From the NCBI GenBank assembly GCA_001818315.1, contig MHKF01000012.1:23976-87975 (forward strand): a DNA stretch of 64,000 nucleotides, written 5' to 3'. Below, one piece after another: positions 3,346-63,333 of this stretch. The stretch comes from Candidatus Kerfeldbacteria bacterium RIFCSPLOWO2_02_FULL_42_19 (lineage in GTDB: Bacteria; Patescibacteriota; Patescibacteriia; HO2-48-17). A program made the translations under genes and the position numbers. The first letter of the stretch is position 1. Each line of letters begins with the position of its first letter. The notes under the pieces are model-generated. The model saw nothing but the letters and a program-made list of their open reading frames with translations, searched no databases and was not told where the DNA came from.

Positions 3346-4671
3346 ATGGTTTTTAAAGAATTATTTAAAAAAATAATTCCTGCAACAATTTTGAGCGCCT
3401 ATCATTTGATGCTTGCATGGGTTGCTGCAGTTTGGTATCGATTTCCTTCTCGTAGGCTTATTGTTATTGGCGTAACCGGTACGAAAGGAAAATCGACGAC
3501 GAGTTTTTTTATTACTAAACTTCTCGAAACACTCGGTGAATCTGTCGGGCTCTCGGGCACGATTATGTTTAAGGTTGGACGTCGCGAATGGCCGAATACT
3601 CTCAAGATGACGATGCCAGGTCGATTTCGTTTGCAGCGATTATTGCGGGATATGGTTCGTGCGGGTTGCGCGTTCGCTGTGATCGAGACAACTTCAGAAG
3701 GTATTGCTCAGCACCGGCATCGCGGCATCGACTATGACGTGCTTGTTTTTACAAATCTTTCTCCAGAGCATATCGAGCGACACGGGAGTTTTGAAGCGTA
3801 TAAGCGTGCTAAACAATCGTTGTTTCAGAATTTGCATCGTAGTTTTCATAAAAATCTTTTTTTCCATAAGCAAGTTCGGCGTATTCTTAAAGTTATCGTT
3901 GTGAATCGTGATGATCCTCATTTCGCTGGTTTTGTGCAATTTTCTGCTGATCAACACGTCGCTGTGAGTCTCTGTGATACAGCTGCTGCAATTTTTGCTC
4001 GCGATGTTATTTCAAATGACTCCGGCAATACATTTACCGTGGCCGATCAACATTTTACTTTGTCGTTACTTGGAGATTTTAATGTCATGAATGCTTTACT
4101 CACATTAGCCGTCGGTGCCGTGTTTGATTTTTCTTTAGAGCATATGAGGTTGGCGCTTGCGAAACTCCCGCAGATTCCAGGGCGTATGCAGCGCATTGAT
4201 GGAGGTCAGGATTTTACGGTGATTGTTGATTACGCTCATGAACCCAAAAGTATGGAAGCGTTGTTTCGTAATGCAAAGCGTCTACGAAAAAATCCGCAGA
4301 GTCGCATTATTACTCTGATAAGTTCTACCGGCGGTGGTCGAGATGTTGCACGTCGACCTATGCTCGGTAAACTCGCTGGTGGGTATGCGGATATTGTGAT
4401 TGTGACTGACGAAGATCCGTATGATGAGGATCCGAATGTTATTATGCAAGCGGTTGCAAGGGGTGTTGTCGAAGCTGGAAAAATACTCGGTCAAACTTTT
4501 TTCATTTTTCAAGATCGCAAGGAAGCTATTTTCGAAGCCATTCGTTTGGCTCGTAGTGGTGATGTAGTGCTTTTACCCGCAAAAGGCTCGGAACGAGTCA
4601 TGGCCGTAGCACATAATACACATATTCCGTGGAGCGACGAAGCTATCGCTCGAGAAGCTTTGAAAAAGTAG
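3346..4671 (+). CDS. murE: MurE-like Mur ligase (UDP-MurNAc-tripeptide synthetase family) that lacks the N-terminal UDP-binding domain and carries an N-terminal TM helix instead
   Basis: P-loop GVTGTKGKSTT. It matches E. coli MurE segment by segment: TMPGRFRLQRLLRDMVRAGC and FTNLSPEHIERHGSFEAYKRAK align with LQRLLAEMVDAGC and [22 protein letters not shown]. The C-terminal LLPAKGSE...SD motif is also MurE-like. The DNPR position reads DEDPY. An in-frame stop at 3322 rules out an upstream extension. Confidence 0.65.
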   Translation: MVFKELFKKIIPATILSAYHLMLAWVAAVWYRFPSRRLIVIGVTGTKGKSTTSFFITKLLETLGESVGLSGTIMFKVGRREWPNTLKMTMPGRFRLQRLLRDMVRAGCAFAVIETTSEGIAQHRHRGIDYDVLVFTNLSPEHIERHGSFEAYKRAKQSLFQNLHRSFHKNLFFHKQVRRILKVIVVNRDDPHFAGFVQFSADQHVAVSLCDTAAAIFARDVISNDSGNTFTVADQHFTLSLLGDFNVMNALLTLAVGAVFDFSLEHMRLALAKLPQIPGRMQRIDGGQDFTVIVDYAHEPKSMEALFRNAKRLRKNPQSRIITLISSTGGGRDVARRPMLGKLAGGYADIVIVTDEDPYDEDPNVIMQAVARGVVEAGKILGQTFFIFQDRKEAIFEAIRLARSGDVVLLPAKGSERVMAVAHNTHIPWSDEAIAREALKK

Positions 4672-12243: not shown

Positions 12244-12723
12244 ATGCGCAATTTTACAAAAATTTTCGTTCCATCGATTCTTGTGAGTACCTTTGTTTTT
12301 GCTGGATGCAATCAGCAAACTACAGAGACAAACGCAGATGTCACTGTCGACGCCACATCCTCAACTTCTGTCGCTAACTCTTCTGCTGATAGCACTTCTA
12401 CGCTCAATTCGGATAGTGCTCGCGAGACGAAGAACACTTCGCAAGGCACCATGAAAGAATTTAAGGTTGTTGCCAAGCGTTTTGTTTTTGAACCGGCAAC
12501 ACTGCGAGTCAAAAAAGGAGATACGGTGCGATTGCAGATTACGAGTATGGATACCGATCACGGTTTTGCCATCGCTGAGTTTGGAGTGAATGCAACAATT
12601 CCTGCTGGTAAAACTGTGACCGTAGAGTTTGTTGCCGATAGGCAGGGCACGTTTACGACACAATGTTCGGTATTTTGTGGCACTGGACACCCTGATATGC
12701 AAGGTACATTGATCGTCGAATAA
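12244..12723 (+). CDS. CuA-type cupredoxin lipoprotein (cytochrome c oxidase subunit II-like domain)
   Basis: Lipobox FAGC. The motif H-x34-C-x3-C-G-x2-H-x2-M (DHGF...QCSVFCGTGHPDM) reproduces the CuA binuclear-site ligand spacing exactly. The stop TAA abuts the ATG of the next gene. Confidence 0.7.
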   Translation: MRNFTKIFVPSILVSTFVFAGCNQQTTETNADVTVDATSSTSVANSSADSTSTLNSDSARETKNTSQGTMKEFKVVAKRFVFEPATLRVKKGDTVRLQITSMDTDHGFAIAEFGVNATIPAGKTVTVEFVADRQGTFTTQCSVFCGTGHPDMQGTLIVE

Positions 12724-36852: not shown

Positions 36853-39663
36853 ATGATTGACAGTCAAGATTTTGTGTTTGCGATGTTTTTATGCTGTAAT
36901 TATTCTATGTTTTGTTTTCAATCTTTACATTATTTCGCAAATTATCTGAAGCGTGCATTTTATAGTATTTTGCGAATATTACGATGTCGCACTCTTTATG
37001 TTTTCGCAATCGTGATCTTCATCACCGTTATTGTCGACTCGACGCCTCTTCTCGCTGCGGAAAATTTTGAAGCACCGGATTTTCAGGTCACACTGAGGGT
37101 TGCTGTAGCGCCCCAAGATATTGCTCCTCAAGCACAAGGAAGTTCGCTTCAGCAACTTGTGCGACAGGTTTTGAGGTTTTTCGCTCCTTTCGATCGCGTT
37201 GCACAAGCAACTTCATCTGTGGACGCGAAAACATTCGTTTCAACCGAACCTGTATGGATGCAATTACTTCGTGCTGTGTCACGCCCCGAACCCACACTCA
37301 TTTTTGTTTTTCTTTTTCTCGCATCCCTTTGCTATGCGCTATATGTGACGCGTGGGACAAAACATTTTTTTACTTTATTTTACAAGCCTCGCGCGCATCT
37401 CTTTCATCATCTCGCAAGGCGGAATTCGACCGGAACGTACCTTCACTCGTATGCGCGTTTTCATCTCCATGCTTTCCTTTCGAAGCACTTTGCGCTCGTC
37501 AGCGGTTTTCTCTTATTCGCGAAAGTTACTGTTGTCGCTGGCCTTGCAACTTTACTGTTGGATTTTCCGTTGCTTTCACGCGCTACTGAGCGTGATGTGC
37601 CTGTGTTTCCGGGGGCAATGCTTACATATCACATCGAATATGATAATCAAAGCGATACATCTCTTTCGCGAGTTCAATTTTCTCACGTATTTCCTCCTGG
37701 CACCGCGTATGTTCCCGGAACGTTTCTTTGGAATAACATCTCTCTCACTGATGTAGCTGATGAAGACGGATTTACGATAACCGACGGTGGATTTACTTTA
37801 CAATCGAATCAACTGCCAGTCGGCACAGGATCGTTTTCGTGGAACCTACGAGTCGCTCATCCTGCTCAAACGAACGCTATCGCAAGTAAAGTTGGATATC
37901 AAATAGATGACGGATTGTTGCAACAAACGAATACTTTCGTGAATCCGGTTGTTACTTTGACGATTTCAGGCAAGGCTTTTTATGATGTGAATCGCAATAA
38001 TGTTTTTGACGCAACGACTGAAACCGGCATCGCCGATGTTCACTTCGCTTTGTATGAAGATACGAATCAGAGCGACGTGTTTGACGGAACTGATACACTG
38101 CTTGCGGAAATGAATACTGCGGAACAAGGCCTCTATCATTTTTCGGGTTTGCGTCCAGGACTTTTTTTTGTAAAAGTTGTGGATGCTCGTGAGGGTCCTT
38201 ATGAACTTCTCGGTGGCTTTCAGGAGGTGCGATTGCAGGCGCTGGAGAGTGTCTCGAGTCAAGACGTCGCTTATATTTTACCTGATGTTGCGCAGAAATC
38301 GACGGTAATGTTCGGTACGCTTTGGCATGATATCGATCGTAATCAACAACATGATGATGGCGAGACGAATTTTAGTGATATAGAGTTACGTTTGTATCGC
38401 GATGCAGCGCACAAGGGTGTTTTGGAAACTCTGAATGATACACTTGTTGCAAGTACGTTCACGGATGAGGACGGTCGATTTCGATTTTTAATTCCAGAAG
38501 AAGGTGATTATTTTGTCCTGGTGTTGATGGAACGATTGCCGCAGGGGTATACATTGACGACCGCTAACCAACCGAAGCGTATTGCTGTGGACGTGGATAC
38601 ATCGGAAACGAATGTCGATAGTTTTGGATATGCATTGCCAACGAGCAGCATCGGTGACGAAGTTTTTGAGGATAGCAATAATAATACCTTGCATGATGCC
38701 ACTGAAGCTGGATTTTCTGATGTGCAAGTGCTGTTGTATCGTGACGATGGCTCGGAGCAATTCGAAGAAGCTTTGGATAATCGTATTGCTGAAACTTTTA
38801 CCGATTCCCAAGGGAAATATCTCTTTTCTCATGTAGCTTCGGGAGGGTACTTTGTAATGATTGACACTGCGACACTTCCGGACGAATCCGGATATCGTTT
38901 GACGACAGCTTCCAATCCTCGCTTTGTTGAAATTGTGATCGATACAGATCAAATGAACCTTCTTTCCGATTTTGGGTTTCGTTCGGAAACAGTAGGGAAT
39001 GATATTCCCTCTTCGTCTGGGTCTCAGTCCAATATCGGCACCGGAGCGACTCCACAATCCGCATCATCACGCATGACTACTCAGTCTGCTCAGGTTCCAA
39101 CGGAGACTATTCCTCAAACGAAACTGAATGTTGTACAGAAACCTGTGTCAGATACTCCGCAAGAGCCTGCAGTTACCACGCTTGATGTTGATTCCGATAC
39201 TGACGCTACATTATCTCCACAGAGTGTGGCGCAATCTGAGCAATCTGCTGGCGATAGTGTTCCAACTGTAACGCCGCAGCCAGTTACCACCGAATCTGAT
39301 TCTTCTGGGGAGGGTTTACAAATACAAAATGATACGGGTTATAAGAGTCGTCCTGTTACTTTACGTCCGTGGGCCACAGAAGATGCTTCGCAGGCTGCAT
39401 TCGAGAATCTCCAAAGACAACTTATGCAGTATGCGGTACGTTTGACTCCGTATGCGGCTTCCGTTTCCTGGTTGGAAACTCCGACGCAACGTTTTTCTGT
39501 GTTTCCTCATACACTCTTGCCTATTATCTTTTTTGTTATTGTTCTTTCATATTGTCTTATGTTGCTTCATGCGTCGGAACGTTCAAAATTTTCACACCGC
39601 TCATCCGTTGTTTATAGTCGCAAAAAGCCTCGTCGCAAAACGTATGCGCGCGTTAGTGAATAA
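36853..39663 (+). CDS. large secreted surface protein with four or more SdrD/Cna-B-type repeats, a Ser/Thr/Pro/Gln-rich stalk and a C-terminal TM anchor
   Basis: Repeated D-x-N-x-N-G-x-x-D...G...V-x-V-x-L...G-x-Y-x-F modules (e.g. FYDVNRNNVFDATTETGIADVHFALY...GLYHFSGLRPGLFFVKV). The start codon is uncertain, and the end overlaps the uvrC start by 20 nt. Confidence 0.6.
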   Translation: MIDSQDFVFAMFLCCNYSMFCFQSLHYFANYLKRAFYSILRILRCRTLYVFAIVIFITVIVDSTPLLAAENFEAPDFQVTLRVAVAPQDIAPQAQGSSLQQLVRQVLRFFAPFDRVAQATSSVDAKTFVSTEPVWMQLLRAVSRPEPTLIFVFLFLASLCYALYVTRGTKHFFTLFYKPRAHLFHHLARRNSTGTYLHSYARFHLHAFLSKHFALVSGFLLFAKVTVVAGLATLLLDFPLLSRATERDVPVFPGAMLTYHIEYDNQSDTSLSRVQFSHVFPPGTAYVPGTFLWNNISLTDVADEDGFTITDGGFTLQSNQLPVGTGSFSWNLRVAHPAQTNAIASKVGYQIDDGLLQQTNTFVNPVVTLTISGKAFYDVNRNNVFDATTETGIADVHFALYEDTNQSDVFDGTDTLLAEMNTAEQGLYHFSGLRPGLFFVKVVDAREGPYELLGGFQEVRLQALESVSSQDVAYILPDVAQKSTVMFGTLWHDIDRNQQHDDGETNFSDIELRLYRDAAHKGVLETLNDTLVASTFTDEDGRFRFLIPEEGDYFVLVLMERLPQGYTLTTANQPKRIAVDVDTSETNVDSFGYALPTSSIGDEVFEDSNNNTLHDATEAGFSDVQVLLYRDDGSEQFEEALDNRIAETFTDSQGKYLFSHVASGGYFVMIDTATLPDESGYRLTTASNPRFVEIVIDTDQMNLLSDFGFRSETVGNDIPSSSGSQSNIGTGATPQSASSRMTTQSAQVPTETIPQTKLNVVQKPVSDTPQEPAVTTLDVDSDTDATLSPQSVAQSEQSAGDSVPTVTPQPVTTESDSSGEGLQIQNDTGYKSRPVTLRPWATEDASQAAFENLQRQLMQYAVRLTPYAASVSWLETPTQRFSVFPHTLLPIIFFVIVLSYCLMLLHASERSKFSHRSSVVYSRKKPRRKTYARVSE

Positions 39664-41422
39664 AAAAGTACAAACACTCCCGCAAGAGCCGGGTGTGTAT
39701 TTTTTTCGTAATGCAAAAAACGCGGTGTTATATGTTGGGAAGGCTAAGAATTTACGTAAGCGAGTTTCTTCTTATTTCCAACATTCAAGTCTTGCGTCCG
39801 ATAAAGAAAAAATGGTGACGGAAATTGTTGACCTCGAGTGCATGATCGTCCATTCAGAAACCGAGGCGTTGCTTCTCGAGACTTCCATGATCAAGAAATA
39901 TCGACCGCAGTATAACATTGTTCTCAAAGATGATCGCAATTTTTCTTACATCAAGGTTACTGTTCAAGAGTCTTTTCCCCGGGTGTTCGTTGTGCGTCAG
40001 ATGATTGCGGACGGTAGTAAATATTTTGGACCGTTTCTTTCGATAGCGAGCGTGTATGAGACGTTGCGTGTTCTTCGTACGCTTTTTCCCTTTCGCACGT
40101 GTACGAATATGCCGAAGCGCCCGTGCTTGGAATATCATCTCGGGCGATGTGTTGCACCGTGTGCGATCGAAGAGGGACGACAAGAATATCCTCAATTGAT
40201 TGCCGAAGTTTGCGCTTTCTTACGGGGCGATGCTGCTTTTCTCCTTCGCGCGTTGGAACAAAAAATGCAGACTGCCGCTCGTCGTTTTGAATATGAGAAA
40301 GCCGCACGTTTTCGTGATCAGATAACAGCGATCCGTCGAGTGATGAGTAAACAGCATGTTATTTCACTCCATGATGAATCTCAGGATGTAGTCAGTGTCG
40401 CAAAGTTTGGCGTTCATGCTGCGGTGCACATTTTTTTTGTTCGGCGAGGGCAGGTGAGTGGACAAGCAAAGTTTCCCCTTGAGCATGTTGAAAGCGCTGA
40501 TGAATCTCAAATACTCGAAGCTTTTCTTGCGCAGTACTATACGCAAGTAGCTGAATTACCAAAAGAAGTGATTGTTCCACATCCTGTGTCCGCGGCTTTG
40601 CGAGGAATCAAATGTACCGTACCCAAACGGGGTCACAAGCGAAAGTTATTGCTGATGGGTCAGAAGAACGCCCTTGCCTTTGTTCAGGCAACCTACGCGC
40701 ATAAGAAGATTAACGTTCAGCACACTCATCAATCTCTTGAGGAGCTTCAAACAATTCTACATCTTTCAACGTTGCCACGTCGCATAGAAGTGTATGATAT
40801 TTCGAATATTCAGGGTTATGAAGCAGTTGGTTCGATGATTGTTTTTGTAGAAGGCAAAGCACGTAAAGATCAGTATCGAAAATTTAAGATTCACAGTATT
40901 GATACTCCGAACGATTTTGCTATGCTTCAGGAGGTTTTATTTCGTAGATTCAAACGTCATCGTGAGTGGGGTACGCCCAATCTTTTGCTCATCGATGGAG
41001 GTAAAGGTCAACTGAGTAGCGTGATTCAAGTATTGGACGCTTTAGGTATTCAAATTCCAGCTGCAGCTTTAGCGAAGCGCGAAGAAGATATTTTTGTACA
41101 GCACAGAGATGCTAAAAATAACGTGCAAAAATTCCCTTTTTCTTTTCAAAGTATAAGATTACCGAAAGACTCGCCAACCCTTTTATTACTCCGACGCATG
41201 CGCGATGAAGCTCATCGTTTTGCGATTGAGTTTTATCGCAAGCGCCATCGTAAAGTTCTTACGCGTTCACTCCTGGATGAGGTTCCCGGTATTGGCCCTC
41301 AACGTAAGAAAGCACTTTTGAATCGTTTTGGGTCCGTTCAAAATATTGCGCGCGCGTCGGATCTCGAGCTTCTTTCACTTATCGGCGTTCAAGCAACGCA
41401 AGCTATCCGCAGTTTTCTTTAA
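39644..41422 (+). CDS. uvrC: excinuclease ABC subunit C
   Basis: GIY-YIG N-terminus (GVYFFRNAKNAVLYVGKAKNLRKRVSSYF), a UvrB-interacting region, an RNase H-like endonuclease domain and a C-terminal HhH. I placed the start at MRALVNKK rather than the upstream tracked M. Confidence 0.93.
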   Translation: MRALVNKKVQTLPQEPGVYFFRNAKNAVLYVGKAKNLRKRVSSYFQHSSLASDKEKMVTEIVDLECMIVHSETEALLLETSMIKKYRPQYNIVLKDDRNFSYIKVTVQESFPRVFVVRQMIADGSKYFGPFLSIASVYETLRVLRTLFPFRTCTNMPKRPCLEYHLGRCVAPCAIEEGRQEYPQLIAEVCAFLRGDAAFLLRALEQKMQTAARRFEYEKAARFRDQITAIRRVMSKQHVISLHDESQDVVSVAKFGVHAAVHIFFVRRGQVSGQAKFPLEHVESADESQILEAFLAQYYTQVAELPKEVIVPHPVSAALRGIKCTVPKRGHKRKLLLMGQKNALAFVQATYAHKKINVQHTHQSLEELQTILHLSTLPRRIEVYDISNIQGYEAVGSMIVFVEGKARKDQYRKFKIHSIDTPNDFAMLQEVLFRRFKRHREWGTPNLLLIDGGKGQLSSVIQVLDALGIQIPAAALAKREEDIFVQHRDAKNNVQKFPFSFQSIRLPKDSPTLLLLRRMRDEAHRFAIEFYRKRHRKVLTRSLLDEVPGIGPQRKKALLNRFGSVQNIARASDLELLSLIGVQATQAIRSFL

Positions 41423-49769: not shown

Positions 49770-52700
49770 ATGAGTATGCCTTTTCGTGCGTCGGGTAATG
49801 CCCGAGGTATCACTTTAGTACCTTCATTGCGTGCGACGATCGCTTTCCTTGCCGCGACGATCGTACTGTTTGCTATGTTTATCGTGCTGCTTTTTGCTTT
49901 TCCAGTTGATGCAGCGGGAAAAAATAAACCTACGCAGCCAATCGATGTCGCTGATAATGATAGTCGTATTGAAGACGTAACAGCCGTTGCTGCCGATACT
50001 ACACCGAGTGCAACCACCAGTTATACAGTTTCAATTCAGCTTACTGAGAGCATTCAACAAGGTGGCGAACTCCGTGTTGATTTTCAACTGACAGCCGGCT
50101 GTCCTCCACAAGCCGATTGGGCTACGCAGTGTCGTTTTGGTTTTACCGATGATGCTACTGTTTCCGGACTACCTGCCGGAGCCGTGTCAAATATTGCCGA
50201 CGTCAATGCTGATTCTTCACAGTTTGGTATTCGTGCAGAATCGGGAGCGATTGCGGCTGGCACGTTGGCTTTGACTGTTTCGGGTGTGAAAAATCCGAGC
50301 GCAGGAGGACTTGCGCGCGTGATGGTTGACAGTGTAGTACCTAGTGATGAACCGGATTGTCCATCTTCTGACGATAATGGCGATGACGATGGGGAGGAAG
50401 ATGAACATCAAGAATCAGAAGTGAATAAAGCTGATGATCAGGAAATGTGTTTTCCAGATATGACTGCTTCCGATCCTATCTATCTCGGCACTATGGCAGT
50501 TGTTGGTGCAGTAACATACAAAGGTGGAGATCTCGATGGTCAGCCAGTTTCTTATGGTTGGGTCAATGCCGGCACAAAGGATTTTTGGACAGGAAGTTCT
50601 ACAGATCGATTCGGAGCTTATGCGATTCCACTGCCGCTTCCGCAGGGGAAATATCAAATTCGTGCAGAAGTACCGATGGGCATCACCGGTTATATCCCAG
50701 CAGTCAAAGAAATTGAGTATAAAGGTACGACAATCACCCAGGATTTAACTCTTGGCATTGCAGTCAAAACTTTGAGTGGTACCGTTAAGTACGCTGATGG
50801 CAATGCAGTGGCTGATGCCTCGGTGTGGATTAATAGTCGTACTAATTTTATGGGTACTGGCGCAGAGGTGAATGAAAAAGGGGAATACAGTGCTTCTCTG
50901 GATTGTGGTGATTACGATATGAATTTGGGTCCAAAATGGGATCCTGAAACTAATCAACCTTCCAGTGTGGATTGGATGTATAATCAACCACCAAAGCAGG
51001 TTTCTTTTGCCTGCGATGGTCAACAGCAAACACAGACCGTCGATTTTACTGTGCAAAAGTCTGATTCAAAGGTCATTGGTACGCTTGTTGACAACAATGG
51101 CAAACCAGCTGATGGTCATGTCGAGCTTCGCACCAAGGAAGGGAGTGGAAACGGGAGTCACACCGATCAAAAAGGGAAGTTTTCCATTCCTATTACTGCC
51201 GGTACGTATGAAATGAATGTGTGGACACAACAGCAGGATTTATATTTTACAGGGCAAAAAGTTGAAGTTCCAACAGGTAAGACTGTGGATGTTGGGACGC
51301 TTCAGTTATCAAAACGCGATGCGCAAATCACTGGTACCGTCACAGACTCAAACGGTACTCCTTTGAGCGGAATGAATGTGAATGCGTGGATGCCGGGAGC
51401 TCAAGGTTGGTCAAATGCGCAGACCGATGACAAGGGTCAGTACACTCTCTATGTTTTCGTTGGTGAATGGGAAGTTGGAATTCACTCAGGAGAAGGTGAA
51501 GACAGTAGTGATCAAAATTACATTCAACCACAGAATCAACGTGTGAAGATTGAAAAGTCCGGGCAGACTGTTAGTGATATCAACTTTAAACTGGAGGCAG
51601 CGGATGCAACGATTGCAGTGCAGGTTGTGGATCAGGATAATAACACGATGAGTGATTTGTACGGATGGGCGTTCTGCCATCTTGAGGGTCAATTTGGACC
51701 AGGAAATGAATTTGGTGCTTCCGTGCAACGCGGTCAGGCCAGTATCCCTGTTCGCGGCGGAGAGACCTATGTTTGCGGTATGGGTTTTCCTCCGGAGATG
51801 CCATTTTCTTTAGAAGAAGAACAAAAAGTTCAGATTAACTCTGGCGAAAGTAAAGATGTCACGATGCGTTTGGTTGAGAATGATGCTGTTATTCATGTCA
51901 TTGTTAAAGATCAAGATGGTAAACAGTTGAAGAATGTGGAGGGATTTGTCTTTGCCTTTACCCCAGAAGGATTTAGTCATTTTGGTGAACCGTTGAAACC
52001 CGATGGTACAGCACATTTGACCGTGCGTGGGGGAAAGAAATACGTTGTTGGTTATGATTTCCGTGAAAATTCAGGATATCTCAATTCTCATCCCGACTTC
52101 AAACCCTTTGAGGTTCCTGAGGACTCTACGGTGACTCGTGTACTGACGGCTTATAAAGCAGACGCGAGTATTAGTGGTACAGTGACTGACCCGGATGGAA
52201 AACCAATGTTTGCATGGGTTGGTGCGAGTAACCGCGCTTCACTTGAAGACAAAGCGCAACTTGATACCGGTGTAGAAGGTGCACAAGTCATTGACACCGG
52301 CACTCAAACCGGTCCAGATGGAAAATATAAACTTCTCCTTGTTTCTGGTGAATTCGAAGTTTTTGCCGGTGGAGAATTTGGTGGGAAAAAAGATTTACTC
52401 CCTCCACAACTTTCAAGCGTTACGGTGAAAACTGGTGATGCACTGACATTGGACATGCAATTTCGTTCAGCCGATGCAACTGTCTCTGGTGCTGTGACGT
52501 ATGCTGATTCCGGTAAAACTGTTCCGATTGGTTTCTGCTGGGCATGGTCAGATGAGCAAGGATTTTCCGGGAATATGTTGAGCAATGGAAAATACACTAT
52601 CCCGCTTGTGGAGGGCACCTGGTTTGTGGGTTGTGATTCCTTTAATCCAAACAAAGGTGAAGGAGAGTTTTATCGCGCACAAGAAGCGATAGTGACAGTG

Positions 52701-54305
52701 ACGAAGGGTGACACTATCACGCAAGATTTTCAACTCAGTAAGGCCTTATTCGAGATTCCTGATGGTGTATCGGAGACCTTTAGTTGTACAACTTTGAAAG
52801 AGATGCGACTTCCTGACGGCACAATTGTGAAGATTCCCGCGAATGCTTTGTGCACAGACGGTGATGTGACCGTGACCGCTGATCCGGCGACTGATGTATT
52901 TCGTACCAATGACGCAAAGCTTCTTATGTACGCATGGAATCTTGAAGCTTTACAGGACGGTCAACTTATCGAGAGCTTTAATTCCAATGTGACTATTATT
53001 ATTCCGTATAGCCAAGAAGTTGTTGATGAGGAAGGTATTGATGAATCGAATCTGCTGGCAAAATTCTTCGATGATTCTACGAGTACCTGGCAGACACCGG
53101 ACAACGTCACAGTGGATACTGAAGCTAACTTGGTCACCGCACAAGTAGATCACTTTACAGAGTTTGCAGTGACCAATAGCGGTGATACGAAGACAAGTAG
53201 TGAAGTGAAAGAAACAACACAAAAGAAACAACGTCATGATATTGTGATTACTCCGTGGTCCAAGGGTGGTCCGCAGGTTGCGGTGTGGAATAAAGATGGG
53301 AAACTGATTACGACGTGGTTTGCTTATGGACAGGATCTGCGCATGGGAATCACGACCTTTAGTGGCGATCTTGATGGCAATGGCGTACCAGAAGTGATTA
53401 CGATTCCTGGTGAAGGCTTTAGTTCGCAGGTTCGTGTTTTTGACGGCACAAATGGAAAAATTTTGAGTCAGTTCTTTGCCTATGATACCGCTTTCAAGAA
53501 AGGTATCAATCTTGCAGTGTATGATCTCGATGGCGATGGAGATCAAGAAATTATTACGGTTCCAGCCAAGGACGCGACTGCTGATGTAAAGATTTTCGAT
53601 CGCAATGGTACGCTTGTCATGCGGTTCAACGCGTATGGGTCGACCTTCACGAAGGGCGCTTTAGTAGCTGCGATGGATTTAGATGGAGATAAACTCGGTG
53701 AAGTTGTTACAGCGCCAGTTGATGGTTCAGGGCAGATTCGTATCTGGTCAGCCAGTAAGGATGATGGTCCTGTTGCTCAATTCGATGCGTACGGCGCTGG
53801 ATATAATAAAGGTATTGCGTCTCTCGTATTGAATGATCTCGATGGAGATGGAAAGGGTGAAATTATCACAACTCCACGGGAGGGTAGTTCACAAGTTCGC
53901 ATCTTTAATCGTTCTGGGAAAGTCATCACGCAGTTCAATGCCTATGGTGAGGGCTTTAAGGGTGGTTCACGTATTGCAGTTGGAGATACTGATGGCGATG
54001 GCAAGCAAGACCTTGTAGCTTTGCCGAATGCGAATGGTTCTGCGCAGGCTCGTATCTTTACAAAGGATGGAGCGGTGAAATCGCAGTTCTTCGCATACCC
54101 GTCGGAGACGACGCGTCCAGGAAGATTCTCAGCAATGCTTGCTGATTTGGATGCCAATGGCAAAGATGAAGTGATCTTCGGCACGGGTGTGGATTTGGGA
54201 CCAAACGTGCGCATTTTTGATCAGAACGGTAAGACCATTGCGCAATTTATGGCATTGCATCCTGGCTTCCGCGGCGGTATGAATGTGAATGCCGTAGCGA
54301 GATAG
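49770..54305 (+). CDS. giant (1511 aa) surface protein with N-terminal TM/signal, ~8 carboxypeptidase-regulatory-like beta-sandwich repeats and a C-terminal FG-GAP beta-propeller
   Basis: Repeats of the form GTVTDSNGTPLSGMNVNAW / GTLVDNNGKPADGHVELR. The C-terminal blades (GGPQVAVWN...DLDGNGVPEVITIPGEG..SQVRVFD) are the same module as ORF 1..840. Confidence 0.7.
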   Translation: MSMPFRASGNARGITLVPSLRATIAFLAATIVLFAMFIVLLFAFPVDAAGKNKPTQPIDVADNDSRIEDVTAVAADTTPSATTSYTVSIQLTESIQQGGELRVDFQLTAGCPPQADWATQCRFGFTDDATVSGLPAGAVSNIADVNADSSQFGIRAESGAIAAGTLALTVSGVKNPSAGGLARVMVDSVVPSDEPDCPSSDDNGDDDGEEDEHQESEVNKADDQEMCFPDMTASDPIYLGTMAVVGAVTYKGGDLDGQPVSYGWVNAGTKDFWTGSSTDRFGAYAIPLPLPQGKYQIRAEVPMGITGYIPAVKEIEYKGTTITQDLTLGIAVKTLSGTVKYADGNAVADASVWINSRTNFMGTGAEVNEKGEYSASLDCGDYDMNLGPKWDPETNQPSSVDWMYNQPPKQVSFACDGQQQTQTVDFTVQKSDSKVIGTLVDNNGKPADGHVELRTKEGSGNGSHTDQKGKFSIPITAGTYEMNVWTQQQDLYFTGQKVEVPTGKTVDVGTLQLSKRDAQITGTVTDSNGTPLSGMNVNAWMPGAQGWSNAQTDDKGQYTLYVFVGEWEVGIHSGEGEDSSDQNYIQPQNQRVKIEKSGQTVSDINFKLEAADATIAVQVVDQDNNTMSDLYGWAFCHLEGQFGPGNEFGASVQRGQASIPVRGGETYVCGMGFPPEMPFSLEEEQKVQINSGESKDVTMRLVENDAVIHVIVKDQDGKQLKNVEGFVFAFTPEGFSHFGEPLKPDGTAHLTVRGGKKYVVGYDFRENSGYLNSHPDFKPFEVPEDSTVTRVLTAYKADASISGTVTDPDGKPMFAWVGASNRASLEDKAQLDTGVEGAQVIDTGTQTGPDGKYKLLLVSGEFEVFAGGEFGGKKDLLPPQLSSVTVKTGDALTLDMQFRSADATVSGAVTYADSGKTVPIGFCWAWSDEQGFSGNMLSNGKYTIPLVEGTWFVGCDSFNPNKGEGEFYRAQEAIVTVTKGDTITQDFQLSKALFEIPDGVSETFSCTTLKEMRLPDGTIVKIPANALCTDGDVTVTADPATDVFRTNDAKLLMYAWNLEALQDGQLIESFNSNVTIIIPYSQEVVDEEGIDESNLLAKFFDDSTSTWQTPDNVTVDTEANLVTAQVDHFTEFAVTNSGDTKTSSEVKETTQKKQRHDIVITPWSKGGPQVAVWNKDGKLITTWFAYGQDLRMGITTFSGDLDGNGVPEVITIPGEGFSSQVRVFDGTNGKILSQFFAYDTAFKKGINLAVYDLDGDGDQEIITVPAKDATADVKIFDRNGTLVMRFNAYGSTFTKGALVAAMDLDGDKLGEVVTAPVDGSGQIRIWSASKDDGPVAQFDAYGAGYNKGIASLVLNDLDGDGKGEIITTPREGSSQVRIFNRSGKVITQFNAYGEGFKGGSRIAVGDTDGDGKQDLVALPNANGSAQARIFTKDGAVKSQFFAYPSETTRPGRFSAMLADLDANGKDEVIFGTGVDLGPNVRIFDQNGKTIAQFMALHPGFRGGMNVNAVAR

Positions 54306-60126: not shown

Positions 60127-60486
60127 AAAAAAGAGCCTATACTTTTGCACTCTTATAGAAATGCGGAGGAGGGCACGATACCGCGAGACTGGTTGTGGCG
60201 AACCAGTTTCGTTAGCGTGCAGCTTGAAAGCTGAGCGCATACATTATAGGCTGTGTGTATTATAGTTGTTTGTAAATTCTCGTCAAGTTAGCCATACTTT
60301 GTTGACGATTTTTGTGTTTATTGGTAACTTTAAACTTGATAATTCCGTGCGCTCTCGGCGCAGGGAGACTGGATCCGCAGATTTGTAAAGATCACGGTAT
60401 GGTATATGCTGTAGTTCTGGGAATGTCGTTCCTGATTTTCCTTTGATTAACAAGAGTTTCAATCTTTCGTATTCCGGAAACGATTT

Positions 60487-61884
60487 GTGACATTACAAGA
60501 GCTTCGCATACAACATCCTTGTTTTCACTATCGGTCGTTCGCATATGCCCTGAAGGGCGAGATACTTCAGCTTGATTTTGTATTTGAACTTGAACCTGAT
60601 ATTATCTTTCAGCCACGGACTTTCATACATGGTCTTGATATCACGCGTTTTTCTACGCTTCGTCCGCAGCTATTGAATCATTTTATTTTTCATCTCGGTC
60701 TGCTTGAATTATTGAGTTATTGGAAGACAGCGTGTTCTCCTGTGATTGAGATCGCTTCCGGTGTTTTGGATGAAGCGCAGATTGCTTGGTGGCAGGATTT
60801 ATTTTTACAGGGTCTTGGTGAGTTTTTCTATGTCAATCAAATTGATTATACCGCTCCTGACTTTGTGCGTTTTAAGGTTCTGCCTCACACACGGGCGTAT
60901 ACCGAAAGTGATAGTACTCCACAATGTTTTCAAGGGAGTCTTGATGCCAAACGGATACTTGTGCCTGTTGGGGGAGGTCGTGACTCTATCGTTACATTAG
61001 AGTTTCTGAAAAAGACTCCGCATGAACTTTCTGCTTTTCTGATCAATCCAACACAAGCGCAACGTGATGTAGTGCAAATCAGTGAATTGACCCGTCAGAT
61101 TATTGTTGAGCGTAGATTAGATTCGAAACTTTTTGATTTGAACGCTGCTGGATACTTGAACGGTCATGTGCCCATTTCTGCGTATTATGCGTTCTATGCG
61201 TGTTTTGTCGCAGTTCTTTTAGGATACAAATTCGTCTCGATTTCGCAGGAACGTAGTTCGAACGAAGGAACAGTCGATTTTTATGGCTTGTCTGTGAATC
61301 ATCAATATTCGAAGACATTTGAATTTGAAGAGAAATTTCGTAAGTATTTCACCTCTGTGTTAGCTTCTGATTTGGAATATTTTAGTTTGTTACGCCCGTT
61401 GTATTCGGTGCAAATTTCCAAGATTTTTGCGAATACGCCAAAATACTTTCCTGTTTTCCGCAGTTGCAATCGCGGACAAAAGACGAATACATGGTGTGGG
61501 GTTTGTGCGAAATGCTTGTTTACATACGCATCGTTGTTTCCTTTTGTATCGGAATCAGTTTTGCAGAGTATTTTCGGGGCCGACATATTATCGAAGTCCG
61601 AGCTTCGTGAGACCGCATTAGAGCTCATCGGTAAGCGCCCAGCGAAACCCTTTGAATGCGTCGGTACGTTTGAGGAAAATAAAGTTGTTTTCTTTTTGTG
61701 TATGCAAAAATTTCAAAAGTCGTATGCAGATAAGCCGTTGCCATCGGTACTTGGCGTCGTTTCTGCGGCACTTGTGGAAGAAACCGATATGGCGCAGCGT
61801 GCGCAGGCGCTTCTGAGTTCCTGGAATACGCAACATCATGTGCCAGAGCAGTTTGCCGAGCTCCTCCATGCTTTTGTTGAATGA
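60487..61884 (+). CDS. PP-loop-like ATP pyrophosphatase-fold protein with a C-terminal Cys cluster, uncharacterised
   Basis: ILVPVGGGRDSIVTLEF resembles the SGGxDS PP-loop. The C-terminus carries CNRGQKTNTWCGVCAKC. Putative GTG start; the gene ends 40 nt upstream of murD. Confidence 0.5.
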   Translation: MTLQELRIQHPCFHYRSFAYALKGEILQLDFVFELEPDIIFQPRTFIHGLDITRFSTLRPQLLNHFIFHLGLLELLSYWKTACSPVIEIASGVLDEAQIAWWQDLFLQGLGEFFYVNQIDYTAPDFVRFKVLPHTRAYTESDSTPQCFQGSLDAKRILVPVGGGRDSIVTLEFLKKTPHELSAFLINPTQAQRDVVQISELTRQIIVERRLDSKLFDLNAAGYLNGHVPISAYYAFYACFVAVLLGYKFVSISQERSSNEGTVDFYGLSVNHQYSKTFEFEEKFRKYFTSVLASDLEYFSLLRPLYSVQISKIFANTPKYFPVFRSCNRGQKTNTWCGVCAKCLFTYASLFPFVSESVLQSIFGADILSKSELRETALELIGKRPAKPFECVGTFEENKVVFFLCMQKFQKSYADKPLPSVLGVVSAALVEETDMAQRAQALLSSWNTQHHVPEQFAELLHAFVE

Positions 61885-61923
61885 TTTGGAGTCATCAATC
61901 AGACATGTTAGAGTGCAAATATT

Positions 61924-63333
61924 ATGCTACAAATTTTAGAATCACTTGCTCACAAAAATATTCTTATTCTCGGTTTCGCTCGAGAAGGCGTTAGTACGTT
62001 GAAGTTTCTCAGGAAAATATTTCCTAAAAAAGTCATTGGCATTGCTGATGTTTTACCTGAATCACAACTTTCTTCTGCAGCGCGCGAGTTGCTTGCGCAA
62101 GAACAACATTTTGTGAAAACGTACTTTGGTTCAACGTATCTTTCGCAACTTTCTGATTACGATGTAATTTTTAAGGCCTCTGGGATTCCACCGAGTATGC
62201 CGGAATTGCAGCAATCTCAAAAGCAAGACGCGCGTGTGCTCTCCAATGTCTCTTTGTTTTTTGATCTTTGTCCGGGCACGATTATTGGAGTGACAGGTAC
62301 AAAGGGCAAGAGTACGACATCGGCATTGATTGCCTCTGTGCTTTCGCGAGGCCAATCAGACGTTCGACTCGCTGGGAATATCGGGATTCCACCGCTGGAA
62401 AGTCTTCAAGGCGCGACGCGCAAAACTTTGTTTGTATTAGAATTATCGAGTTTTTATCTCGCGGGGCTTGAAAAAAGTCCGCACGTTGCCGTAGTTCAAA
62501 ATATTGTCTCCGAACACGGGGATTATCATGGCAGCTTTCAAGCGTACATTAAAGCGAAATCGAAGATTGTTCGTTATCAAACAACGCAGGATATTGTGAT
62601 TTTTAATGCTGATTTTTCGTTGCCATTACAGATCGCTCTCCAGTCTTCTGCACAAAAATTTTCGTTTTCGTTCACATCTTCACAAGCTCATTGTTTTGTA
62701 GAAGATGAATTTTTTGTTTGGAATCACAACGGTAAAAAAGAGAGAATCTTTCCTTGTCGTACGATGTCACTCCTCGGGAAATTCAATCGCTATAATGTGA
62801 TGCCGGCGATTGTCCTCGGAAAACTCTTTGGTGTAACGAATCACGATATCGCTGACGCTGTATCCCATTTTCAGCCTCTCAAGCATCGTCTGAATTTCGT
62901 TGCCGATATTCAGGAGATTGATTTTTATGATGACAGTCTTTCAACGGTTCCTGAAGCCGCTATTGCAGCGTTAGAAACTTTTGCAGGACGGGATATAGTT
63001 TTGCTTGCCGGCGGTTTTGATCGTGGACAAGATTATACGCAGCTTGCGGAGAAGATTATGGAACTGCATGTGAAAGCGCTTGTACTTTTTCCAACAACAG
63101 GCGAGCGTCTCTGGGAGTGTGTGCAGCGTATAGGTAGCGGTCTGCAAAAATCACTTCCTGCGCATGTTTTTGTTTCTAACATGCAAGAAACGGTTACGCA
63201 AGCAATTGTATTTGCAGAGAGGGGTGACGTTGTGCTTCTGAGTCCTGCAGCCCCAAGTTTTGGCATGTTCCGCAATTATACAGATCGCGGTATGCAGTTT
63301 CAGGAGGCTGTAAAAATTTTAAAAAAAGTTTAA
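61924..63333 (+). CDS. murD: UDP-N-acetylmuramoylalanine--D-glutamate ligase
   Basis: N-terminal Rossmann-like ILILGFAREG, P-loop GVTGTKGKSTT, and a C-terminal LLSPAAPSFGMFRNYTDRGMQF that matches E. coli MurD [22 protein letters not shown]. Confidence 0.85.
   Translation: MLQILESLAHKNILILGFAREGVSTLKFLRKIFPKKVIGIADVLPESQLSSAARELLAQEQHFVKTYFGSTYLSQLSDYDVIFKASGIPPSMPELQQSQKQDARVLSNVSLFFDLCPGTIIGVTGTKGKSTTSALIASVLSRGQSDVRLAGNIGIPPLESLQGATRKTLFVLELSSFYLAGLEKSPHVAVVQNIVSEHGDYHGSFQAYIKAKSKIVRYQTTQDIVIFNADFSLPLQIALQSSAQKFSFSFTSSQAHCFVEDEFFVWNHNGKKERIFPCRTMSLLGKFNRYNVMPAIVLGKLFGVTNHDIADAVSHFQPLKHRLNFVADIQEIDFYDDSLSTVPEAAIAALETFAGRDIVLLAGGFDRGQDYTQLAEKIMELHVKALVLFPTTGERLWECVQRIGSGLQKSLPAHVFVSNMQETVTQAIVFAERGDVVLLSPAAPSFGMFRNYTDRGMQFQEAVKILKKV

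Follow-up and report, generated by a model that had tools for sequence, protein, structure and literature searches.

How does a bacterium come by the D-glutamate (D-Glu) of its peptidoglycan stem peptide when no glutamate racemase is visible around its cell-wall genes? The question is raised by a 64,000-nucleotide (nt) stretch of contig MHKF01000012.1 (the whole of it is called the window here), from a bacterium of the candidate phyla radiation (CPR), in which an open reading frame (ORF) of 465 aa directly precedes murD:

60487..61884, + strand: murL candidate ORF, 465 aa, GTG start
61885..61923, + strand: murL-murD spacer, 39 nt
61924..63333, + strand: murD ORF of MurD2 type, 469 aa, predicted UDP-MurNAc-L-Ala:L-glutamate ligase (TIGR01087, Mur domains, signature residues)

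An earlier note on this DNA had placed a 465-aa ORF upstream of murD and suggested that the two products might add L-Glu to the stem and then epimerize it, a route that it ascribed to Xanthomonas. The ORF is present at these coordinates, on the strand of murD and adjacent to it, with 39 nt between the genes and not the 40 nt given. This was right: the pathway comes from Feng et al. 2017, as reviewed (PMC8788868, PMC5808125). By analogy with that pathway, we consider it very probable (roughly 0.85) that the pair is a murL-murD2 operon that supplies the D-Glu of the stem peptide without free D-Glu. This would explain how this CPR bacterium is able to build normal peptidoglycan in the absence of free D-glutamate.

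Predicted substrate specificity of the ligase

The downstream ORF scored 338 bits against the TIGR01087 murD model (cut-off 212), and in Pfam Mur_ligase_M and Mur_ligase_C were above threshold, with MurD-like_N below it (22 vs 27 bits). As the reference Xanthomonas murL-murD pair, we used that of X. sacchari, annotated by the Prokaryotic Genome Annotation Pipeline (PGAP) and taken from a PLSDB record; the window ligase is 29-30% identical to the X. sacchari MurD2. Four positions that differ between E. coli MurD and X. oryzae MurD2 are D182 (E197 in X. oryzae), K348 (R358), A414 (P433) and L416 (F435); the double reversion E197D/R358K turns X. oryzae MurD2 to D-Glu, and E. coli MurD K319T accepts L-Glu (PMC8788868). 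Alignment placed the equivalent residues of the window ligase at the following codons:

62512..62514, + strand: Glu197, equivalent to E. coli Asp182 and X. oryzae MurD2 Glu197
62938..62940, + strand: Leu339, equivalent to E. coli Lys319
63022..63024, + strand: Arg367, equivalent to E. coli Lys348 and X. oryzae MurD2 Arg358
63253..63261, + strand: Pro444-Ser445-Phe446, equivalent to E. coli Ala414-Ser415-Leu416 and to X. oryzae MurD2 Pro433/Phe435

Read in columns 182/319/348/414/416, the proteins compared are:

E. coli MurD: D/K/K/A/L
P. aeruginosa MurD: D/K/K/A/L
A. baumannii MurD: D/K/K/A/F
T. maritima MurD: D/K/K/A/F
S. agalactiae MurD: T/K/R/A/W
X. sacchari MurD2: E206/I339/R367/P443/F445
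window ligase: E197/L339/R367/P444/F446

Lys319 is kept in E. coli MurD and in the solved canonical MurDs of all four other species, and Asp182 and Lys348 are kept in E. coli and three of the four. Because the window ligase has E/R/P/F at the columns that mark the X. sacchari and X. oryzae MurD2 proteins, it is of the MurD2 type and would most likely be an L-Glu ligase, the kind of MurD paralogue that had been suspected beside the 465-aa ORF. The use of Lys319 loss as a mark of MurD2 is our own, drawn from the X. sacchari sequence together with the K319T result; Leu339 takes its place here.

The same residues recur in the MurDs linked to MurL in other genomes. In a set of 69 (68 loci with a near-full-length murD, and the window), Glu was found at column 182 in 64, Arg at column 348 in 68 and Lys at column 319 in none; Pro at column 414 was variable and occurred in 19. 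The plain MurD name that NCBIfam and PGAP would give, that of a D-Glu ligase, probably states the wrong substrate chirality for what is most likely an L-Glu ligase. PGAP also calls the X. sacchari MurD2 orthologue itself a D-glutamate ligase.

Family membership of the epimerase candidate

Against NF041275, the NCBIfam model for UDP-N-acetyl-alpha-D-muramoyl-L-alanyl-L-glutamate epimerase (MurL), the 465-aa ORF product gave an end-to-end match (E 1e-74, 251.6 bits), with residues 13-462 on profile positions 10-445 of 447. An identical protein was found on a Joint Genome Institute (JGI) metagenome contig of 6,991 bp, where the precomputed Pfam annotation lists MurL_N (PF26299) and MurL_epimerase_C (PF26298). 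The two MurL domains are known from this precomputed annotation; the Pfam copy that we scanned directly lacks both models, which is why the direct scan returned only sub-threshold matches to QueC and DUF6395.

By BLASTP, the window protein is 34% identical to X. sacchari MurL over 333 aa (E 4e-51), and the two share the motifs GGGKDS, NGH, NHQ.SK, SCN...WCGVC.KC and KPFECVG. The closest non-identical MurL has 63% identity and the next at most 49%; the best GTDB match has 45%. With the profile match, the Pfam domains and the identity to X. sacchari MurL, the membership of the MurL family that the earlier note had raised is well founded. In the comparison with MurL and PP-loop profiles that it had put forward as a check, MurL was matched and no tRNA or cofactor PP-loop family reached threshold. 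The QueC family proper (PF06508) was rejected as an assignment at 12 bits vs a cut-off of 22, the protein being a superfamily relative and not a member. Alignment of the MurL family with E. coli QueC by hhalign was weak (probability 19%), and in it the PP-loops align.

Fold and conserved residues of MurL

An AlphaFold2 model of the window MurL, computed with 37 homologues as input, had a mean predicted local distance difference test (pLDDT) score of 94.5 and a predicted template modelling (TM) score of 0.93. When this model was compared with the PDB by Foldseek, the top match was QueC (2pg3; E 4.5e-5, TM 0.62 on target), followed by QatC, TtuA, argininosuccinate synthase (ArgG) and MnmA, all of which are PP-loop ATP pyrophosphatases. 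The modelled core is thus recognisably a QueC-like PP-loop ATP-pyrophosphatase domain. This assignment fits what is known of the enzyme, since Xanthomonas MurL needs one ATP and forms AMP (PMC8788868, PMC5808125). The parts of the protein referred to below are:

60487..60891, + strand: MurL N-terminal domain, about residues 1-135 (Pfam MurL_N)
60970..60987, + strand: PP-loop GGGRDS, residues 162-167, predicted ATP pyrophosphate-binding loop (translation and homologue alignment)
61465..61515, + strand: four-Cys cluster C327-x9-C337-x2-C340-x2-C343, predicted metal (Zn) site, QueC-like (translation)
61645..61665, + strand: KPFECVG motif, residues 387-393, with the fifth conserved cysteine, C391 (translation)

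Both motifs that had been pointed out from the translation, GGGRDS and the Cys cluster, are present, and their conservation across 117 homologues speaks against chance. The PP-loop reads [GS]GGKDS across these homologues, with G164 and D166 invariant, and in the window protein it aligns with the SGGxDS loops of TtuA and of QueC. Such a loop, placed where the first strand of a Rossmann-like core ends, is what we took to mark the superfamily (adenine nucleotide alpha-hydrolase fold). The cluster lies in the stretch CNRGQKTNTWCGVCAKC (residues 327-343 of MurL, nt 61465-61515), and its four cysteines, C327, C337, C340 and C343, are invariant. Together with the structure matches, the conserved loop and cluster agree with the idea, also voiced earlier, of an adenylating PP-loop enzyme.

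QueC has a C-terminal four-Cys zinc site whose spacing resembles the C-x9-C-x2-C-x2-C of MurL, and by this analogy a structural zinc is the most likely occupant of the MurL cluster. Both weak Pfam matches, to QueC and to DUF6395, fall on the four-Cys stretch. That to DUF6395 (E 0.008) covers MurL residues 317-345, and judging from this overlap the uncharacterised DUF6395 may share the metal-binding module of QueC and MurL.

Outside the loop and the cluster, H227, H272 and K276 are invariant in the 117 homologues. C391 is present in 116 of them, and the KPFECVG motif around it is also found in X. sacchari MurL; from this conservation, C391 is a candidate acid/base residue. The N-terminal domain has invariant E74, Y78 and K80, with W79 in 116 of the 117, and may bind the substrate. 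Modelled alone, it reached a pLDDT of 91, and a fold search with it against solved structures gave TM scores below 0.4 throughout, with RNase-H-like noise only. The MurL sequence retrieved no solved MurL from the PDB; the TtuA PP-loop alone was matched, weakly and locally.

A QueC-like fold could also be read in other ways. The PP-loop protein might adenylate the alpha-carboxylate of the stem Glu for amidation to iso-glutamine, or for transfer to another nucleophile, with the ligase being an ordinary D-Glu MurD. QueC is indeed the nearest fold, and in PP-loop enzymes such as QueC, NAD synthetase and asparagine synthetase adenylation is usually coupled to attack by ammonia. We nevertheless regard this reading as quite improbable: the ligase has the residues for L-Glu and lacks K319, the PP-loop protein is co-linear over its full length with a biochemically defined MurL family, and no glutaminase partner is encoded next to it. 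A role as the QatC-like part of an anti-phage QatABCD system, prompted by the second-best Foldseek match (QatC 9y02_B; E 9e-5, TM 0.40 on query), has practically no chance of being right. PADLOC models match neither of the two window proteins, and the neighbours are trpS, murD and a phosphohexomutase gene, with none like QatA, QatB or QatD. The defence reading was rejected on the empty PADLOC result; the resemblance to QatC is explained by the QueC-like core that the two proteins have in common.

According to the reviews, MurL "lacks known conserved domains" (PMC8788868, PMC5808125), and our search of the literature available to us found no paper on MurL in CPR bacteria or on the MurL fold. 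The QueC-like PP-loop/four-Cys fold would give a structural starting point for the mechanism of MurL.

Gene order, fusions and spread of the family

A scan of GTDB species representatives gave at least 594 confirmed MurL relatives, the best 80 of which were used for a comparison of loci; the groups represented are Parcubacteria, Microgenomates, Saccharibacteria, Bacteroidales, Acidobacteria, Rokubacteria, Chloroflexia, Proteobacteria and others. Directly after murL, on the same strand, 60 of the 80 loci have a murD homologue, and 9 more have one 0.5-3.4 kb downstream on the same strand, so that the order murL-murD is seen in 69; 4 further loci are truncated. In X. sacchari, murL is likewise directly upstream of murD. 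The spacers in homologous murL loci are similarly short, or the genes overlap, and no terminator-like site was seen when one was looked for in the 39-nt spacer of the window; murL and murD are probably co-transcribed.

When 1.84 billion representatives were searched with a MurL profile, 3,442 clusters (50% identity) reached E <= 1e-3 and 1,619 reached E <= 1e-30. Among the top 150 representatives of the family, 28 are about 800-1070 aa long. Ten fusions were checked (P0241, P0246, P0249, P0255, P0260, P0274, P0285, P0304, P0343 and P0362): in nine, MurL is joined to a Mur ligase, which may come first or second, and in the tenth it is joined to MurB. The forms seen among these metagenomic cluster representatives are MurL-MurD, MurD-MurL, a MurC/E-type N-domain ligase with MurL, and MurB-MurL. 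Where the ligase part was well matched to MurD, the E/[LI]/R signature was found in 24 of 26 fusions. The conserved adjacency and the repeated fusions argue strongly that MurL and MurD act on consecutive steps.

They also bear on the view that the ORF encodes a tRNA or cofactor PP-loop enzyme, of the QueC, TtuA or LarE kind, that stands beside murD by chance. The sub-threshold QueC match, the weak match to the TtuA PP-loop and the QueC/TtuA-like fold are in its favour. We judge it highly improbable, given that no such family reaches threshold, that the MurL match is better by 60 orders of magnitude, and that the adjacency to murD is conserved across phyla, with the genes often fused.

The reviews place the pathway in "relatively few bacterial genera" and present it as a narrow-spectrum drug target (PMC8788868, PMC5808125). 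The MurL family appears to be far more widely distributed than this. The narrow-spectrum argument is weakened, because murL-murD2 pairs or fusions occur in at least 594 species representatives from many phyla. On a tentative extrapolation, to which we give slightly less than even odds, the MurD2/MurL bypass would rank among the major sources of stem-peptide D-Glu, and might be the chief one, in much of the CPR (Patescibacteria), in many Bacteroidales, Acidobacteria and Chloroflexia and in others, with an epimerase that is derived from QueC and often fused to MurD2. If that were true, thousands of annotations as "MurD, D-glutamate ligase" would be wrong in substrate chirality, and the PP-loop, the four-Cys site, C391, H227 and H272 would be concrete residues to test in the mechanism.

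Genes of the family were also seen on plasmids. Pseudonocardia alni plasmid pPaSha1 (L086:5764-7164) carries a MurL-like gene that is annotated as "hypothetical protein" and scores 323 bits against NF041275, and two other Pseudonocardia plasmids carry MurL-like genes, also annotated as "hypothetical protein"; no murD was found within 6 kb of the Pseudonocardia plasmid genes. The X. sacchari R1 record "plasmid unnamed" (NZ_CP010410.1, 508 kb, L085) has murL-murD and a bifunctional aspartate kinase/diaminopimelate decarboxylase gene. Because it has core cell-wall genes, this replicon may in fact be a chromid, or else chromosomal sequence that was misassigned.

Search for a glutamate racemase

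A tblastn search with E. coli MurI across the 64-kb window gave no match. Of the 35 non-nested window ORFs with 150 aa or more, 33 showed no Asp_Glu_race or class-IV aminotransferase domain; for the other two, mfd and trpS, only the translations were read. The absence of a glutamate racemase that had been remarked on before thus holds within the 64 kb, which also contain no second murD.

With the search for murI confined to these 64 kb, the MurD2/MurL module could work and yet be redundant or conditional, with a racemase or D-amino-acid aminotransferase encoded elsewhere in the genome. We hold this to be unlikely. The published cases of the pathway are genomes without murI and dat (PMC8788868), and a ligase that E197, R367 and L339 restrict to L-Glu would, by analogy with XOO_1320, be unable to make efficient use of free D-Glu; nor does the window offer a second murD.

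Weighing of the evidence and proposed route

Several points weigh against a murL-murD2 operon as the source of D-Glu in this bacterium. The window MurL, at 251.6 bits, stays below the NF041275 equivalog cut-off of 700 bits. This cut-off is specific to one clade, tuned to Xanthomonadales: X. sacchari MurL scores 836.5 bits, whereas scores of 230-323 bits were obtained for homologues from Alphaproteobacteria, Actinobacteria and other CPR bacteria and for JGI-named ones, a range that takes in the 251.6 bits of the window protein. Identity to the Xanthomonas proteins is just 29-34% for ligase and MurL, and for CPR homologues the activities are predicted ones. Single signature positions are not fully diagnostic, as the canonical S. 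agalactiae MurD has Thr182 and Arg348, and 3 of the 69 MurL-linked MurDs keep Asp at column 182. In 7 of the 80 loci, MurL has enough flank and no nearby murD; because of these loci and the orphan Pseudonocardia plasmid genes, the family may also hold members with other substrates. Finally, the absence of murI applies to 64 kb of the genome, and a murI may lie elsewhere.

Support is direct for family membership, fold, specificity residues, conserved pairing and fusions; we infer the catalytic steps, the metal and the base residues. In the route that we propose, L-Glu would be added first, by the MurD2-type ligase, and then flipped by the ATP-using epimerase MurL. The PP-loop domain of MurL, with Mg-ATP, would adenylate the alpha-carboxylate of the terminal Glu, so that ATP is consumed and AMP made; ATP use ending in AMP has been shown for Xanthomonas MurL (PMC8788868; PMC5808125). 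The alpha-proton would be acidified and exchanged through an enolate or an oxazolone, both of which are possible, and the activated alpha-carbon would be deprotonated and then reprotonated from the opposite face, with C391, H227, H272 and K276 as candidate acid/base residues. Hydrolysis would free the D-epimer and AMP, and it is this release that would make the reaction one-way. MurE, encoded in the same window (3346-4671), would then extend the stem peptide.

The pathway was already known and models of its families exist. What we add to the reviews is modest, namely the wider spread and the QueC-like PP-loop core, and curators may know of both.

The locus and the rest of the window

The start of the murL ORF was supported by alignment, in which the N-terminus is in line with those of homologues. 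Promoter and terminator scans gave signals at or below chance level. The gap between trpS and murL (60127-60486) is 360 nt of non-coding DNA with a hairpin-forming stretch, ACTGGTT...AACCAGT, around 60189-60208. Rfam gave nothing for this leader, even at E <= 1, and none of its promoter matches on the + strand was convincing. Across the whole 64,000-nt window, no Rfam family reached its gathering score, and there was no tRNA, rRNA or riboswitch.

The RpoB protein of the window shares 79% identity with its Candidatus Kerfeldbacteria counterpart, and its best matches are all from Patescibacteria. The gene content is CPR-like, with RNase J, FtsK, RecA, GroEL, UvrABCD, MurJ, MurE and large repeat-rich surface proteins. 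The other stem-peptide ligase named in the route is:

3346..4671, + strand: MurE ORF, 441 aa (TIGR01085, 339.9 bits, cut-off 257)

The MurE ORF aligns with the TIGR01085 profile only from position 59 of 472 on; either most of the usual N-terminal domain seems to be missing or the start is miscalled.

Large predicted surface proteins are encoded on the + strand at 4-840, 36853-39663 and 49770-54305, with FG-GAP, SdrD_B, SpaA and CarboxypepD_reg repeats; one is 1,511 aa long, and such proteins are typical of CPR bacteria. The UvrC ORF (39452-41422, + strand) shares 212 nt with the 936-aa ORF before it, and its GIY-YIG domain does not begin until residue 80; UvrC probably starts further downstream than listed. 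Between rpoC, which it follows directly, and the gene of a Na+/H+ exchanger with a TrkA-N domain lies a gene for a small cupredoxin/COX2-like protein (12244-12723, + strand), an unusual neighbour for the rpoBC operon.

Comparison with known systems

The closest characterised system is that of Xanthomonas. The window MurL shares with Xanthomonas MurL a full-length co-linear homology, the conserved motifs and the place directly upstream of a MurD2-type ligase. It differs in being 34% identical, below a cut-off tuned to Xanthomonadales, in that its activity is a predicted one, and in its host, a CPR bacterium near Kerfeldbacteria, a lineage absent from the distribution given in the reviews. With Xanthomonas MurD2, the ligase shares the Mur-ligase architecture, all four of the distinguishing residues E, R, P and F, the first two of which set the specificity for L-Glu, and a hydrophobic residue in place of K319.

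QueC (7-cyano-7-deazaguanine synthase) is the best solved-structure match to the MurL core and resembles it in the position of the PP-loop and in the C-x(8-9)-C-x2-C-x2-C pattern. QueC activates a carboxylate with ATP, as we propose for MurL. MurL exceeds QueC by two parts, a domain of about 135 aa at the N-terminus and a helical extension of about 120 aa at the C-terminus; the MurL substrate would be a nucleotide-sugar dipeptide and the outcome epimerization, in place of the formation of an amide or nitrile.

MurI is a cofactor-independent racemase with two cysteines that acts reversibly on free glutamate, and it has no relationship to MurL in sequence or fold. In contrast to MurI and the canonical MurD, MurL works after ligation, at the cost of one extra ATP and in one direction (PMC8788868).

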